A stretch of DNA of 64,000 bases from Chthoniobacteraceae bacterium (GTDB taxonomy: Bacteria; Verrucomicrobiota; Verrucomicrobiia; Chthoniobacterales; Chthoniobacteraceae): contig JBBCKI010000030.1 in the NCBI GenBank assembly GCA_037190965.1, positions 32,001 to 96,000 on the forward strand. The letters run 5' to 3'. The translations under genes were made by a program, and so were the position numbers. The notes beneath the pieces are model-generated. The model worked only from the letters and a program-made list of their open reading frames with translations. It was not told the origin of the DNA and did not search any database. Positions 11,332 through 18,804 of the stretch are shown here, piece by piece. How positions within the stretch are numbered: the stretch's first letter is position 1; each line of letters begins with the position of its first letter.

Positions 11332-12255
11332 CTACGCTCCGAGGTTCGCTAGATACCGCTCCGCGTCGAGCGCGGCGGCGCACCCCTGCCCGGCGGCGGT
11401 GATCGCCTGCCGATAGACGTGATCCGCGACGTCGCCTGCCGCAAAGACGCCGGGGATGTTCGTCCGGGTGCCCCCGCATTGGAGCAGATACCCGTCGGAA
11501 TCCATATCGAGCTTCCCTTTGAAGGGGGCGGTGTTGGGCGTGTGGCCGATGGCGACGAAAACGCACTTCACTTCCAGTTCGCTCTCCTCGCCGCTCTTGA
11601 CGTTGGTGAGCTTTACGGCGCGCACCTCGCCCGCGTCATCGGTCAGGTACTCGGAAACCACGCTGTCCCAGACCGGCTCCACCTTCTCGTTGGCCAGAAC
11701 GCGGTCGGCCATGATCTTGGAGGCGCGCAGGGAATCGCGGCGATGAATGAGATACACCTTGGAGGCAAAGCGGGTCAGGAAGACGGCTTCCTCGGCGGCG
11801 GAGTCGCCACCGCCCACCACGCACACCGGCACGTTCCGGTAAAACGCGCCGTCGCAGGTGGCGCAGGAGGTCAACCCGTGGCCGATCAGTTCGCGCTCGC
11901 GCGGAATCCCGAGATAACGGGCGGAAGCGCCGCTGGCGACGATGAGCGTCTGCGTCTCGACCCATTCCCCGTCGACCTTCACGCGCAGGAACCCGTTGTC
12001 CTGCTCAAGATCCTCCACGGTGGCGTAGGAAAAACGGGCGCCGAAGCGTTCCGCCTGGGCCTTCATGTTCATGATCAGATTGGGGCCGTCGATCCCTTCG
12101 ACAAAGCCGGGAAAATTCTCAACAAGGGTCGTCGTTGAGAGCTGCCCCCCGGGCTCTTTACCTTCAAGAACTAACGGCGAAAAATTGGCGCGCGCGGCAT
12201 AGATGGCGGCGGTAAGCCCGGCGCAACCCGAGCCAACGATGATCACTTTTTCCAT
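11332..12255 (-). CDS. trxB: Thioredoxin-disulfide reductase
   Basis: GSGCAG FAD motif, CATCDG active site, GGGDSA, HRRD, AAGDV..YRQAITAA. Start MEKVII at 12255. Confidence 0.97.
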   Translation of the reverse strand: MEKVIIVGSGCAGLTAAIYAARANFSPLVLEGKEPGGQLSTTTLVENFPGFVEGIDGPNLIMNMKAQAERFGARFSYATVEDLEQDNGFLRVKVDGEWVETQTLIVASGASARYLGIPRERELIGHGLTSCATCDGAFYRNVPVCVVGGGDSAAEEAVFLTRFASKVYLIHRRDSLRASKIMADRVLANEKVEPVWDSVVSEYLTDDAGEVRAVKLTNVKSGEESELEVKCVFVAIGHTPNTAPFKGKLDMDSDGYLLQCGGTRTNIPGVFAAGDVADHVYRQAITAAGQGCAAALDAERYLANLGA

Positions 12256-12350
12256 AAGGCCGGGAGTAGAGCAGCAGCACGGGGCAATTTCCAGTAAAAG
12301 CTGCAAAAGGAAGCATCTCCAACCCTATTGACGGCATCCATTTACCCGCT

Positions 12351-12626
12351 CTATCGCTTATTCTTTACCGATCTTCCAAGCAGATGGGCTGCGATGGGAA
12401 GCGTGATGAATAGAAACGCGATCGCGGCAATCATTTTCACCCAAGCGGAGATCGTACCAAAGGACAAAGCGGCCGCCAAAGCGGTAAACCCGAGGCCGAA
12501 GGTGCTGGCTTTCGTCGCGGCATGAATCCGCGAATAAAAATCGGGAAAGCGAAACACCCCAAGCGCTGCGATCAGAGAAAAAAAACCTCCAACGAGGAGA
12601 AAAAAGGATGCGATGTAAGAGATCAT
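12351..12626 (-). CDS. mrpG: Mrp Na+/H+ antiporter subunit G
   Basis: RFPDFYSRIHAATKASTFG and TLPIAAHLL motifs; ATGA overlap with mrpF. Confidence 0.9.
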   Translation of the reverse strand: MISYIASFFLLVGGFFSLIAALGVFRFPDFYSRIHAATKASTFGLGFTALAAALSFGTISAWVKMIAAIAFLFITLPIAAHLLGRSVKNKR

Positions 12627-12907
12627 TTCGTGTTCGAAGTTTCGTCTCTTTCGCGCTGTAGAAAACGCGCCAAAGCCACGGTTCCAAAAAAAGCGATGAT
12701 AGAAAAGACCAGAACGACATCCAGCATGGCCTCGTCCTTGCTCCGGATGGCGTGGGAGATCATCAGGACGGCCACCAGCAGGCCCAGAAGGTCGATGGCA
12801 ACCATCCGATCCGCCGCAGTCGGACCAATCGTCATGCGACAAAGACACAAGACCATGGATACAATCAGCATGATTTCAAACACGGCATTAACACTCTCGG
12901 GTATCAT
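12623..12907 (-). CDS. mrpF: Mrp Na+/H+ antiporter subunit F
   Basis: GPTAADRMVAIDL and FFGTVALARF motifs. Confidence 0.92.
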   Translation of the reverse strand: MIPESVNAVFEIMLIVSMVLCLCRMTIGPTAADRMVAIDLLGLLVAVLMISHAIRSKDEAMLDVVLVFSIIAFFGTVALARFLQRERDETSNTK

Positions 12908-13272
12908 GATAATGATGGGTTGGGGTTTCCCAGTGCGTGGCGGAGCAAGGTTTCGAGCTCCATTCGAACTTTCAAGGGGTCTTCGAGATAGAGGGCGTGG
13001 ACCAGGAGATGATCGGACCCTTCTTCCAGATCAAGAGAGAGTGTGCCGGGGGTCATTGAAATCAGGCAGGCGGCCTCCCAACGTTGGATCGGATCATACC
13101 CTTTCAGATTGATCTCCACGAATCCGGGATGAAACTTCGGTTTGAAACGAAGGGCATCCATCGCGACCCGGATGTTGGATAGCGTCATCTCCCGGAGGTA
13201 AATCGGCAGAAAGCGGACCAGCCCCGGAAACCGGAACAACGTTCTCCTATAAATATTTTTGCTGATGCTCAT
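12904..13272 (-). CDS. mrpE: Mrp Na+/H+ antiporter subunit E (short form)
   Basis: SNIRVA, ISMTPGTLSLD, LLVHAL motifs; position between D and F. Confidence 0.88.
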   Translation of the reverse strand: MSISKNIYRRTLFRFPGLVRFLPIYLREMTLSNIRVAMDALRFKPKFHPGFVEINLKGYDPIQRWEAACLISMTPGTLSLDLEEGSDHLLVHALYLEDPLKVRMELETLLRHALGNPNPSLS

Positions 13273-14738
13273 GGGATGAGAAGTTGCCTGGATGCAATAT
13301 CGGCGAGTTCAAAAAGCCAGGTTGGATAAAAACTGATGAGCAGTGTAATTCCCGTGAGGATGACCATCGGAATCACATGAGCCGCATGGATGGGCCTCCT
13401 CTCTCCGGCATTCTCAGGGCGCTCCTTCCAAAAAGCCTCCGCCCATATCTTGGTCATGGAAAACAGGGTCAGAATCCCCACGGCCAAAGCGATGCCCGCG
13501 GCGAACCAGGCGTGAACACCAAAGATCGCCTCCAACAAGGCCAACTTGGCCCAAAAGCCCGACAGCGGCGGAATGCCGCCGAGCGAAAGCGCGGGGATAA
13601 GAAACAAGACCGCCAACCACGGCGCGGCGCGGTAGAGCCCACCGGTTCTTCGAAGATCTTCGCCGCCTCCAATCCGGTCAATCACTGACGCCGCGAGAAA
13701 CAGGTTCGACTTCACGACAATGTGATGGATCACGTAAAAGATCGTAGCCGAGATTGCTCCAGCCGTGCCAAGCGCGAGCCCCAAGGCCATGTAGCCGATC
13801 TGACTGATGATGTGGAACGAGAGAATTCGCCGAACATGAAACTGGCTGGCAGCTCCGAGGACGCCGATCACCATTGTAAGGAGAGCGACCCACCAGAGAA
13901 TCGGCAGAGTGAAGCTTTGATGTGCGGAAAAAGTCGACCCGAATGTACGAATCAAGGCATAAACCCCAACTTTGGTCAGCAACCCGGCGAAGACTGCCGA
14001 AACGGTATATCTCGGGGTATGGTATGAAGAGGGCAACCAGGCATAGAGGGGGAAGAGACCGGCCTTCACGGCAAACGCCAGCATCAGGAAAACGCCAGCA
14101 AGCCGGATTCCCGTGACGGAGCCTTGCCCTTGGGAAATCCGCAACGCGATATCGGCAAAATTCAGCGTGCCGAGGCTTGCATAGATGATTCCGGCCCCAA
14201 TCAAGAACACCGTCGAGGCGACGATGTTGAGCACCATATACTTCACCGTCCCCTCGAGCTGGCTTTTGCTCCCGCCCTGAGCCAACAGAACGAAAGAGGA
14301 GAGCAGCATCACCTCAAACCAGACATAGAGGTTGAAGAGGTCATTGGTCAGGAACGAACCGCAAACTCCAAAAAGGAGAAATTGATAGAGCGGGTGATAC
14401 CCTCGCCGCTCATCGCTGATCGGAACTTCAGCGAGCCCGTGAATGGCGCCACAAAAACCGATCACGCCGGTGATGGCGACCATCAAGGCTGAAAGCATGT
14501 CGGCCCGGAGCCGAATCCCAACCGGCGCGGCCCACCCTCCCACATCCAGAATCACCGGGCCGTGCGCCTTGACGGCGGCTACGAGCGCGAAGCTGAACGC
14601 CGTCAGAAGTGCGGTCGAACCCACCGCGACGACACGTTGGGCTTTGCTTTGCCCGAGCAAAAAAATCTGCACGATCGCCGCCCCCAGGGGGATGAGAAGG
14701 CAAAGGTACAAAGGAAACGGATTCATCAAATCAAACAT
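13269..14738 (-). CDS. mrpD: Mrp Na+/H+ antiporter subunit D
   Basis: GGWAAPVGI, DLFNLYVWFEVML, KAGLFPLYAWLP, GIPPLSGFWAK. Confidence 0.95.
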   Translation of the reverse strand: MFDLMNPFPLYLCLLIPLGAAIVQIFLLGQSKAQRVVAVGSTALLTAFSFALVAAVKAHGPVILDVGGWAAPVGIRLRADMLSALMVAITGVIGFCGAIHGLAEVPISDERRGYHPLYQFLLFGVCGSFLTNDLFNLYVWFEVMLLSSFVLLAQGGSKSQLEGTVKYMVLNIVASTVFLIGAGIIYASLGTLNFADIALRISQGQGSVTGIRLAGVFLMLAFAVKAGLFPLYAWLPSSYHTPRYTVSAVFAGLLTKVGVYALIRTFGSTFSAHQSFTLPILWWVALLTMVIGVLGAASQFHVRRILSFHIISQIGYMALGLALGTAGAISATIFYVIHHIVVKSNLFLAASVIDRIGGGEDLRRTGGLYRAAPWLAVLFLIPALSLGGIPPLSGFWAKLALLEAIFGVHAWFAAGIALAVGILTLFSMTKIWAEAFWKERPENAGERRPIHAAHVIPMVILTGITLLISFYPTWLFELADIASRQLLIP

Positions 14739-15078
14739 CGGTATTCTTCAAGCTATCGAGGTCGTCGGTGCCAAGATCGCGGTAGGCGTTCTTGAGAAGA
14801 ACAAGGGCAAAGGCGATGACTCCGAAGCCGATCACGATGGCGGTCAGGATCAAGGCTTGCGGCAGTGGATCGGGATAACCCGGAGGCGGCGCCGTTTGCC
14901 CCTCCTGAATAATGGGAGAGACGCCTGACCCAAGCCCTGGAAGCACGAGAATCACAAGATTTGCCGCTTGGCTAATAAACAAAATCCCCACGAGCAGACG
15001 GGTAATATTCCTCCGCAGAAGCAAATAAAAGCCGCAGGTAAAGAGGAATCCCGTGAGAAGAATAATGATGGTCTCCAT
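14731..15078 (-). CDS. mrpC: Mrp Na+/H+ antiporter subunit C
   Basis: DPLPQALILTAIVIGFG signature; start METIII. Confidence 0.93.
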   Translation of the reverse strand: METIIILLTGFLFTCGFYLLLRRNITRLLVGILFISQAANLVILVLPGLGSGVSPIIQEGQTAPPPGYPDPLPQALILTAIVIGFGVIAFALVLLKNAYRDLGTDDLDSLKNTDV

Positions 15079-15083
15079 GACGA

Positions 15084-17846
15084 CTATGGAAAAGAAAGCG
15101 ATTTGGGAGTCTCCGAGCGAATCAACCGGGTGAGAATCAACAGGCAAACGCCGATCACCACCAGGTAAACGCCGATATCAAAAAGGAACGGGGTTCCAAA
15201 CTTCGTGATCCCCACCAGGGGAAGCCACAGGGCCCCTACCCAGACACCCTTCATGAAAACCTCCGAGAGAAAGATCGAAGGAAGCGTGCTCAGGACGGCG
15301 ACAGCAATGCCGGTTCCGATGAAAAGCAACGGAGTCCGCGGGGCGTGAAATGGATGATCCGCATTCCCCATCCGCCGCAATAGCAGGCCACTTCCGGCGA
15401 CCAGCCCTCCGATAAAACCTCCGCCGGGTTCGTTATGGCCTCTGAAAAGAATGAAAACCGACAAGAAGAGCAATAGGGGTGTCAACCACGAGACGGCAGT
15501 TCTGAACAACGGCGTTGCAATGACCAGCTCGGCCTTCAGATTGCGCCGTCCCGATCCCAGAAGAAGACCAGCCACCCCAATGGCGGCAATCGCCAGAACA
15601 CAGATCTCCCCCATCGTGTCAAAAGCGCGAAAATCGACGAGGATCACGTTTACAATATTCTTCCCGTTTGCCTCCGGCAGGCTTCGGGCAGCCATCTCTG
15701 TCGAAATGCGCTGGGCTTCCGGTATCGGAGCACCTCGCACGGCCAGCAACGTCGCCGTAATCGCAAGCCCTCCGGCGAGCGCGATCAAGAAGTCAGTAAT
15801 TCTTCTCCGGCCCGAAGAACGAGTTTGGGATTCAATGGGAGGCAGCGCCCGCATGACCAGCGAGAACAGCACGAGCGTCAATGTTTCAACAAGCACCTGC
15901 GTTAAGGCCAGATCCGGCGCGCCGAAGAGCGCAAAGAGCAACGCCACGCCATACCCCACGCCGCCCATCGCCAACACCGCCATCACCGTACTGCGCGAGC
16001 GGATCGCCGCGATCCCCGAGAACACCGTCAGCAAAGAAATTCCCAACGGCACTAAACGCATCGGCCCACCTTGCGGCGGGCCACTCCAGCCGGTGCTTAC
16101 CAAAGAGGCAGTGATAATGGCGGAGAGAGAGACGATTACGACCGCAATATAAAGCCGAAGATTGCCATGCTGGAAAAACCGCGTGACCGAGGCGGCGACC
16201 GACACCATCCCTTGCACTCCGGCGTCGAAGGTCTTTGATGCCGTCGGGACTCGCTCAAGCAGAAGGTGCATGCCTGCACGGATCCGATTCTGAAAGAGGT
16301 AGAGCAAGACTCCAACAACGACCGTCACCCCGCTCAGCACCAACAGTAGATTCAAGCCATGCCAGAGCTTGAGATGGGATTCGATGGGCCGTTGAACAAT
16401 ATCCCGGACGGCCATATCAATCACCCCATGCCCAAGCAGGTTGGGAAAAAGACCAAACAATGCTCCGGCAAGCGCCAGCAACAGGGGTCCGGTTAAAAGA
16501 GCCGGTTTGCGAGCCTTGGGATTGATCTCAGGAATTGTGCCACGCCGTCGAAAAGGAGAAATGCCCACCTTCAGGGCTACGGTGACATTGATGGCATTCG
16601 CAGCAAAACCAAGGACGGTGATGAATACCGCATAGCTCGTCGCATTCAGTTGAGCCTCATAGAGGAGCTCCTTCCCGATAAATCCGACAAAAGGAGGCAA
16701 CCCGGACATTGAAAACGCCGCGAGGGCTGCCGCGAAGGCAAGCATAGGCATCGGCCGCCCCAAACCCTGAAGGAGGGTGATATTCCGCGTGCCGACAGCC
16801 TTATCCACCACCCCGGCGATCATGAACAAGGGAGCCTTGTAAAGCGCGTGAACGACAAGAAAGACCATCGCTGCCTTAATGGCCAGTTCCGTACCGAGCC
16901 CCAGCAGCATGACCAGCGTGCCAAGCGCGCTCATCGTCGAGTAGGCGAGCAGACGCTTGAGATCCACTTGAGCCAGAGCCAGCAATCCCCCCAACAGCAT
17001 GGTGACCGCTCCGGTAGTCGTCAGCACGTCATGCCATATCTCGGTCCCGCCAAGGATCGGAAGAAACTTGGCGAGCAAAAACACCCCGGCCTTCACCATC
17101 GTCGCCGAGTGAAGATAGGCACTGACCGGCGTCGGGGCGGCCATTGCATCGGGAAGCCAGAAATGCAGGGGAGCCTGAGCGGATTTACTGAACGCTCCCA
17201 GCACCACAAGAATGAAGATCGCGAGATAAAGCGAGCTGTTACGAATCAGGTCGCCACTATTCTGAAGCGCAACCAAGCTGTAGGTTCCGGCTTCCGCACC
17301 GAGTAACAGAATGCCTGCGAGCAGCGCGAGCCCTCCGGCACTAGTGACCAACAAGGCCCTTAGCGCTGCTTTCCTTGCCGCCGATTCCTGATGAGAAAGG
17401 CCGATAAGCAGATAACTCGCAAGGCTCGTCAGCTCCCAGAAAACAAATAACAAGAGCAAGTTATCGGAAGAGGCAATCCCCAGCATCGCCAGCATGAAGA
17501 GATGGACGAACGCAAAGAAAGGGGGAGCCTGCGGCGACCCCTTCAAATAACCGCCACCGTAGATCAAGATTAGCGAACCGATGCCGGTCACGAGAAGGGA
17601 AAGCAACAGCCCGACGCCATCGAGCCTGAACCCGAGCGTTACCCCCAATTGTGGAACCCACTCTACAGACCATTTGGGGAAACTCCCTGCTCCAATCGCG
17701 CCACCTTGCGTGAGCAGCCAGAGAAAGATGCCGAGCGGAACCATTGCCGAGCACCAGCCTGCCCAGACGCTGTTTCGCTTTGCAATGACGGGCCAAAACA
17801 GCGAACCGAATGCCACTGCCGCTAATCCAATCAGAAACCCTTCCAT
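15084..17846 (-). CDS. mrpA: Mrp Na+/H+ antiporter subunit A fused to the B domain (group-2 mrpA')
   Basis: [60 protein letters not shown], and C-terminal MrpB motif [14 protein letters not shown]. Start MEGFLI at 17846. Confidence 0.95.
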
Positions 17847-18009
17847 CGTGAATTTTGCTGAAAACGCCGCAGATACGACCGATCTAAACCGGCAATTTGA
17901 GAAATCTGACCGACTGACCGAAAGCCAGATCCAAAGGTGAAGCAAACATCAATGCCGGGGAAAGCGCGGCAAAGAAAGAAAGTTTAAATAAAAACATGGG
18001 CACGCAAAT

Positions 18010-18070
18010 TAACAGTGGCGACCCTACCACTGTCATTGACTATCACTGCCGGGATGCAGCGAAACCCTTA
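18010..18070 (-). ncRNA. Candidate cation-sensing riboswitch (nhaA-I / Li+-I-like) in the mrp leader
   Basis: Minus-strand RNA GGGUU-UCGCUGC(AUCCCG)GCAGUGA-UAGUCAAUG-ACAGUGG(UAGGGUCG)CCACUGU. It has two hairpins, begins at the predicted TSS and precedes a Na+/H+ antiporter. Family match is from recollection of the consensus, not a search. Confidence 0.55.
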
Positions 18071-18076
18071 ACCGTG

Positions 18077-18104
18077 AAGCTAGACGACTCTCCTTGATTG
18101 TCAA
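18077..18104 (-). promoter_or_regulatory. Sigma70-type promoter of the mrp operon
   Basis: TTGACA (18104-18099), 16 nt spacer, TAGCTT (18082-18077). Confidence 0.6.
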
Positions 18105-18207: not shown

Positions 18208-18804
18208 ATGTTCACCGGCCTTGTTGAAGAAACCGCTTCCGTTGTTGCGCTGACTCCCATTGCCCAAGGAGCCACCCTGACGGTGCAAGCTTCTCACGTG
18301 GTCGAGGGCACCCGCCTTGGCGATTCCATCGCGGTCAACGGCTGCTGCCTGACGGTCACCGCCATTTCGGAAGGGCGACTTGCATTCGATCTGCTGGCGG
18401 AAACGCTCGCACGGACGAATCTCGGCGCGTTGAACCCCGGCGCGCTCGTCAATCTGGAGCGCGCCCTCCCCGCCAACGGGCGGTTGGGAGGCCACTTCGT
18501 ACAAGGGCATATCGACTGCACCAGCCGCGTCATCGCGCTGGAGCCGCACGGGCAGGATCACCGCCTTGAAATCGCATTGCCCGCCGAGTTTGCGAAATAC
18601 GTCGTCTTCAAAGGCTCGATCGCCGTCAACGGAATCAGCCTCACCGTCGCGGAAGTCCGGGAAAACAGCTTTGTGCTCTGGATCATCCCGCATACCCTGG
18701 CGGTCACCAATCTGGGGACTTTGCGAGAAGGCGATGCGGCAAACCTCGAATTCGATCTCCTCGCCAAGTATTTGGAACGCATGATAACGCACAGGGAAGC
18801 CTAG
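18208..18804 (+). CDS. ribE: Riboflavin synthase (alpha chain)
   Basis: MFTGLVEE N-terminus, GDSIAVNGCCLTV, VNLERAL, GGHFVQGHID, KGSIAVNGISLTV. Confidence 0.96.
   Translation: MFTGLVEETASVVALTPIAQGATLTVQASHVVEGTRLGDSIAVNGCCLTVTAISEGRLAFDLLAETLARTNLGALNPGALVNLERALPANGRLGGHFVQGHIDCTSRVIALEPHGQDHRLEIALPAEFAKYVVFKGSIAVNGISLTVAEVRENSFVLWIIPHTLAVTNLGTLREGDAANLEFDLLAKYLERMITHREA

Follow-up and report, generated by a model that had tools for sequence, protein, structure and literature searches.

The window, the whole 64,000-nt stretch of Chthoniobacteraceae DNA that was analyzed, carries on its minus strand an mrp operon that is preceded by a promoter-like sequence and a two-hairpin leader. The features of this region are listed below, with window positions; conservation is given for the ten copies of the element described in the next section.

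18099..18104, minus strand: -35 box TTGACA, found 37-46 nt before GGGU in 10/10 copies
18077..18082, minus strand: -10-like box TAGCTT, after a 16-nt spacer; TA at +16 in 7/10 copies
18064..18069, minus strand: 5' AAGGGU of the putative aptamer, at the base of P1; kept in 10/10 copies and matching the nhaA-I consensus GGGU
18043..18062, minus strand: P1 hairpin, UCGCUGC (18062-18056) with GCAGUGA (18049-18043) around a variable loop; from folding and covariation
18039..18041, minus strand: junction AGU after P1 (AGG in canonical nhaA-I); AGU in 10/10 variants
18010..18035, minus strand: P2 hairpin, UGACAGUGG (18035-18027) with CCACUGUUA (18018-18010); from folding and covariation
18026-18019, minus strand: P2 loop UAGGGUCG (canonical nhaA-I loop, UCGGGCCG)
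17998..18005, minus strand: GCGUGCCC, candidate anti-aptamer strand just 5' of the first AUG, from predicted pairing
17884..17997, minus strand: 37-codon ORF, beginning at the first AUG (17997) past the aptamer, in the position of the relatives' leader membrane-protein gene
15084..17846, minus strand: mrpA, 920 aa, a fusion of the A and B parts; NCBIfam PRK12647/PRK12648, E 1e-258 / 1e-230, under the curated cut-offs
14731..15099, minus strand: mrpC
13269..14738, minus strand: mrpD
12904..13272, minus strand: mrpE
12623..12907, minus strand: mrpF
12351..12623, minus strand: mrpG, start approximate; PF03334, E 5e-26
18208..18804, plus strand: ribE (riboflavin synthase), a divergent neighbour outside the system

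The initial annotation had described TTGACA-16-TAGCTT, a transcript beginning (AA)GGGUU and two hairpins, all of which were confirmed on the minus strand, the boxes at 18104-18099 and 18082-18077, AAGGGUU from 18069 and the hairpins both by the letters and by folding; it had overlooked the conserved AGU junction and the AUG at 17997; the distance to mrpA, which it had put at about 165 nt, is 164 nt from the end of P2 to the ATG at 17846. Transcription would be expected to start near 18070-18069. A promoter scanner found no promoter at the element, and TAGCTT matches 3/6 consensus letters. The segment 18068-18010 is predicted to fold into exactly the two hairpins (-25.6 kcal/mol, z -3.59), with 0/200 shuffles equally stable; the plus strand of 18010-18104 has a z of only -1.46. 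On the minus strand UAGUC lies between P1 and P2, and the top of P2 is an invariant GG-UAGGGUCG-CC. The strand GCGUGCCC has two potential pairing partners, the 5' GGGU and the P2 loop (p 0.05-0.07, non-significant by itself). The AUG at 17997 sits 14 nt past P2, and the ORF that it opens stops 38 nt short of mrpA. No intrinsic or U-tract terminator was found in the window leader after the element.

Copies in other genomes and their downstream genes

Ten copies of the element, the window copy and nine others, were found in ten genomes. MrpA-related loci, 80 from genomes and 80 from metagenomes, included four carriers, namely L123 (a Luteolibacter MAG), L124 (Verrucomicrobia LW23), L125 (a 6-kb contig of a Pirellula MAG, host uncertain) and L127 (JB024); the 80 metagenome mrpA loci gave 0 matches. 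A covariance model built from these four copies and the window copy, R1, recovered a further copy, L263, out of sample at 53.6 bits, the single new one in 16 genomes, as well as four copies at 27-31 bits among 151 genomes of the order of genome G453, three of them preceding genes for PF07399 antiporters and one preceding nhaA. These scores barely exceed those of chance hits (up to 26.7 bits), and the four copies were accepted because they have the exact loop, the promoter and the gene context. Overall, the genes downstream are mrp in six cases, PF07399 antiporter genes in three and nhaA (PF06965) in one; mrp is thus only one of the kinds of partner gene. On the upstream side, the other copies have genes that differ from the ribE of the window.

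Other searches, in genome samples that overlap, added no member. The sequence pattern found the own copy and 3 loop-only matches in 401 genomes of the phylum, and in 361 order relatives of G733 it found 2 known copies and 5 genomes with partial matches. R1 found the own copy and 5 weak matches inside ORFs in 151 genomes of the own family. No new member was found in relatives of G453 (151 from its family, 151 from its genus), in 67 genus relatives of G455 or in 151 genomes of the own order, and the single match (23.9 bits) in 101 order relatives of G454 was rejected, as its loop differs. Viral contigs gave 36 pattern matches, the best at 26 bits and without P1, and no member was found on plasmids. 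The subclass is therefore rare and patchy.

The six mrp-type copies all fall in a single nine-row clade of MrpA (SH-aLRT 100) in a quick tree of 33 rows. Two of the nine mrp operons of this clade, L043 and L126, do not carry the element, and a third has at most a decayed trace of it, indicating that the element is dispensable. In this third operon (L128:2300-2400) TTGACA is followed by a look-alike, GGGU...AGGU...UGGGGCCG, which scores 7.9 bits with R2, a model of canonical nhaA-I RNAs described below, in another register and nothing with R3, and was not counted as a copy; it is possibly a lost switch or another variant. In the window, the G+C content of the mrp operon (12000-18000) is 0.54-0.57, compared to 0.65 in the 2 kb on the trxB side, and this, together with the scatter of the clade across distant lineages, hints at horizontal transfer of the operon.

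The mrpA genes of L123, L124, L127 and L263 are separated from the RNA by a gene whose product is an unnamed, hydrophobic protein of about 160 aa. This gene is missing in the window and in its genome, where tblastn found no homolog of the leader protein. An origin of the 37-codon ORF as a remnant of this gene was considered and found unsupported, as 555/876 reported shuffles scored equally high. Seven proteins of the family were found (among them L123:1928-2419, L124:1960-2439, L127:1894-2400, L043:1988-2479 and L263:1583-2089), encoded by the first gene of this type of mrp operon, directly under the putative riboswitch. They match no Pfam family and have no Atlas match at 0.9; one of them (P0005) is attributed by its source to a cultured species. 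The protein may be an accessory subunit of Mrp or act in ion stress. At L125:183-209, mrpA continues in frame from the initial seven codons of the leader gene, apparently through a clean deletion that put mrpA directly under the switch.

Relationship to nhaA-I RNAs

Recognition by the Rfam models for nhaA-I, nhaA-II and DUF1646, suggested in the initial annotation as a check, did not occur, an outcome that it had listed among those that would count against its reading. An Rfam scan of the window found no family at cut-off except one tRNA, and scans ranked by E-value returned weak, unrelated matches only. Within 801 or 81 bases around the element, the nhaA-I and Sodium models gave no match with an E of 10 or less, nor any match at the element among the 150 candidates scored in a whole-genome search. 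The nhaA-II (Li+-II) model was absent from the cmscan hits. The element stays below the cut-offs of RF03057 (37 bits) and RF03071 (40.5 bits); RF03071 had no match at these loci, and RF03057 detected none of the other nine at an E of 5 or less. None of the ten copies is matched by an Rfam model, because three substitutions are fixed at conserved positions. The best RF03057 match of the genome (C28, 28.8 bits) lacks P1, lies antisense inside a gene and was attributed to chance. The same applies to a match of the Acido-1 RNA (RF01686) at 18070-18011, which has a similar GAGGGU-like loop and scores 18.3 bits with a cut-off of 50; the Acido-1 model does not match the copy in L303, and this RNA is listed as probably not cis-regulatory in PMC2864571.

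For comparison with canonical RNAs, RF03057 hits above cut-off were collected from the class, where 15 of 151 genomes gave 20 hits. Sixteen of the 20 were aligned, and 11 of these, after removal of four rows misaligned in P1 by MAFFT and one near-duplicate, were used to build model R2. With filters off, R2 ranked the six mrp-type copies 1-6 in 93,634 bases, with scores of 22.0-13.2 bits and E-values, which are rough for the models built here, of 3e-5 to 0.022; the next match had an E of 0.68. The window copy scored highest (22.0 bits, E 3e-5). On the four other copies, R2 gave E-values of 3e-6, 9e-5, 6e-4 and 0.19. Conversely R1, built from variants only, recovered 15/16 canonical RNAs at E up to 0.09. 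Judged by these reciprocal matches, the element is a homolog of the nhaA-I / Li+-I riboswitches. The genome's own nhaA has no match to R2 or R3.

The Rfam nhaA-I consensus reads GGGU-P1-AGGU...GGUCGGGCCGCC. The element shares with it the two-hairpin architecture with a 5' GGGU and covarying P1 and P2, and the location in the 5' leader of cation/H+ antiporter genes. It lacks the AGG(U/C) that follows P1 in the consensus, and at the top of P2 all ten copies carry GGUAGGGUCGCC, with 10/12 letters the same, in place of GGUCGGGCCGCC. The three fixed changes are AGG to AGU in the junction, C2 to A in the loop and C6 to U in the loop; AGG and loop C2 were found in 20/20 canonical matches, and AGU and A2 in 10/10 variants.

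AAGGGU, AGU and GGUAGGGUCGCC are invariant in 10/10 copies. In the alignment of the ten copies to R1, which leans to that model, 86.5% of cells are paired and 11/16 pairs have changes on both sides (7/8 in P1), a level reached by 0/500 shuffles; slid controls have 29-62% paired. The first five copies, aligned without fitting to a model, have 88.6% paired, again with 0/500 shuffles reaching this value. The hairpins are conserved and covary in other antiporter leaders, a comparison that the initial annotation had suggested for mrpA leaders, and its reading as a variant nhaA-I RNA has gained support from covariation in antiporter leaders, reciprocal covariance-model homology and the presence of an antiporter gene downstream in 10/10 copies. 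On this evidence the element appears to be a real, conserved and Rfam-invisible variant of the nhaA-I cation riboswitch, with its own sequence subclass, GGGU-P1-AGU-linker-P2 with UAGGGUCG.

Canonical nhaA-I RNAs themselves (L268-L288) occur above the Rfam cut-off in 15/151 Verrucomicrobiae genomes, while PMC9646797 lists nhaA-I in proteobacterial classes only. The ORFs that follow these canonical RNAs include a glycosyltransferase (L274) and small unnamed proteins, and two Verrucomicrobiae genomes have two canonical copies 1 kb apart.

Like Li+-I (RF03057), as characterized in PMC9646797 and PMC5737381, the element has GGGU, P1, an AG junction, a short linker and a P2 top of GG-U.GGG.CG-CC; it also shares with Li+-I a length of about 60 nt, U at loop position 1, the lack of a terminator and a location before nhaA and PF07399 genes (PMC9646797). 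Unlike Li+-I, it has AGU rather than AGG and UAGGGUCG rather than UCGGGCCG, and 6/10 copies precede mrp operons, which are not named in Supplementary Table I of PMC9646797. NhaA (PF06965) and PF07399 are the families that this source names for NhaA-type genes under these switches. Na+-II, the D. propionicus nhaA-I variant, offers in the same text a precedent for a change of the P2 loop that shifts selectivity, and is described there with loop C1, an AGG junction and an intrinsic terminator, in Deltaproteobacteria only. In contrast, the element keeps U1, is changed at loop 2, loop 6 and the junction, and has no detected terminator, so that both C at loop position 1 and the intrinsic terminator of Na+-II are missing from it. 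With Na+-I (DUF1646, RF03071), as presented in PMC9337991, it shares two hairpins, a purine-GGGU loop core and sodium-transport genes, and the phyla with Na+-I listed there include Verrucomicrobia. The loop core is AGGGU in the element and gGGGU in the Na+-I consensus (full loop ugGGGUGg), with differences at positions 7-8. Na+-I is described in that text as having GGUU...AAGA at the base of P1, purines at loop 7-8 and usually a terminator; the element does not have GGUU...AAGA. Overall, the variant loop has purine 2 and U6 as in Na+-I, and U1, C7 and G8 as in Li+-I.

As the canonical RNAs have G-C and the variants U-A at the junction and loop position 2, these two changes are proposed to represent one compensatory G-C to U-A tertiary pair. 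Such a pair would fit the docking model, although it rests on a single evolutionary event. Double mutants M2 and M3 of a Na+-II construct, which span the junction and loop-2 sites, lost their response according to PMC9646797; Na+-I constructs have no Watson-Crick pair at these sites.

Proposed switching mechanism and ligand

The element probably works as a monovalent-cation ON switch, a reading to which we assign a probability of about 0.8. Docking of the P1 base and the P2 loop on Na+ has been proposed for Na+-I in PMC9337991, and by analogy with the validated relatives a cation would here help to keep the P2 loop docked against the P1 base. Without the cation, GGGU, AGU or the loop letters would instead be base-paired to the region around the start codon of the first ORF, preventing its translation; in the presence of the cation, the conserved letters would be tied up, translation would start and the antiporter would be made. 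In this genome, control of mrpA-G would pass through the 37-codon ORF by translational coupling or Rho polarity, the weakest step of the model. Rho is present in the genome, which has two rho-like genes (G000:C18:22723-23922 and C9:35520-36611).

In the mrp leaders, 14-30 nt separate P2 from the first AUG. Folding predictions set conserved letters opposite the start region: in the window, GCCC is the partner of the 5' GGGU; in L123 and L125, the AGU strand meets a complementary stretch immediately 5' of the AUG; and in L124 and L127, codons past the AUG are paired with the loop or the 5' end. Compared to shuffled downstream sequences, start-region pairing had p values of 0.070, 0.033, 0.023, 0.086, 0.080 and 0.130 in the six mrp leaders, with that of the window leader only 0.07; the Fisher combination, of tests that are non-independent, is 0.0008. 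In the four PF07399/NhaA leaders, the pairing was non-significant (p 0.17-0.51). When the aptamer was imposed on the window leader, the surroundings of the AUG became more open (mean unpaired probability 0.82, compared to 0.48 before), and accessibility of the start region barely shifted in L127 and L263. The layout of the A. caulinodans Li+-I construct, read by eye, is the same, with conserved letters set against the start region, and Li+-I RNAs are ON switches thought mostly to act at the ribosome-binding site (PMC9646797). The predicted pairing of conserved letters with the start region gives moderate support to a translational ON switch.

It is unlikely that the subclass is functional elsewhere and that the window copy is a relic or acts only on the 37-codon ORF, with mrp no longer controlled. 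The leader gene of about 160 aa found in L123, L124, L127 and L263 is gone here and mrpA is 164 nt away, the element has been lost in L043 and L126 and has decayed in L128, and P2 is more stable than the hairpin that competes with it (-13.2 vs -8.4 kcal/mol). However, the window copy has lost none of the invariant letters, retains both stems as well as the promoter, has the highest score among the six mrp-type copies with the canonical-only R2, and has a complementary strand immediately 5' of the AUG.

Mrp complexes function in alkaline pH homeostasis, and some of them transport K+. These roles, along with the three fixed changes in the conserved core, are points in favor of an RNA of the same fold and ancestry whose input is K+, NH4+, alkaline pH or a protein, with antiporters induced for pH homeostasis, an explanation that we regard as quite unlikely. 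One change in the loop of Na+-II, C to U, widened its response to Li+, Na+ and NH4+ (PMC9646797), which lends this explanation some further weight, but the validated members of both related motifs described in PMC9646797 and PMC9337991 all answer Li+ or Na+, and NhaA and PF07399, found with four copies, usually accompany Li+-I.

Chance hairpins or a DNA element such as an operator or terminator unrelated to nhaA-I, compatible with the lack of an Rfam match and with a relaxed post-hoc descriptor that finds 3 genome sites vs 2 in a reversed control, are very improbable and largely refuted by covariation that includes G-U pairs, the invariant loop, the fixed orientation behind a promoter, the reciprocal model matches, the presence before three unrelated antiporter families and the lack of a detectable U-tract terminator.

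If the element is a monovalent-cation switch, Na+ would be the leading if tentative candidate ligand, followed by Li+ as a possible one; a response to both ions, or to another cation or pH, would each be rather unlikely. It is conceivable, at clearly less than even odds, that the AGU/UAGGGUCG subclass represents a fourth specificity type, combining a Li+-I scaffold with a Na+-I-like loop, sensing Na+ (or another cation, or pH) and acting on translation.

Implications for the nhaA-I family and Mrp antiporters

A full-text search, with most subscription papers outside its coverage, found no paper that combines an mrp operon, a riboswitch and an antiporter. Neither a description of the subclass nor the 12-nt loop sequence was found in the searchable literature, and existing alignments of 944 nhaA-I and 308 DUF1646 members may already hold such rows; no paper on a Na+-II crystal structure or aptamer structure was found in the literature searched. 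With ten copies and 0 detected, Rfam undercounts the nhaA-I family. How these RNAs build ion-selective pockets is called unclear in PMC9337991. If the proposed tertiary pair is correct, the natural swap from G-C to U-A would pinpoint where the P1 junction and the P2 loop touch in the folded aptamer. The three fixed substitutions provide a short list of reciprocal mutants to probe both this pair and the determinant of Li+/Na+ selectivity. If the switch reading is correct, this would be the first riboswitch that these searches found tied to mrp operons, and riboswitch control would be extended to the Mrp antiporter.
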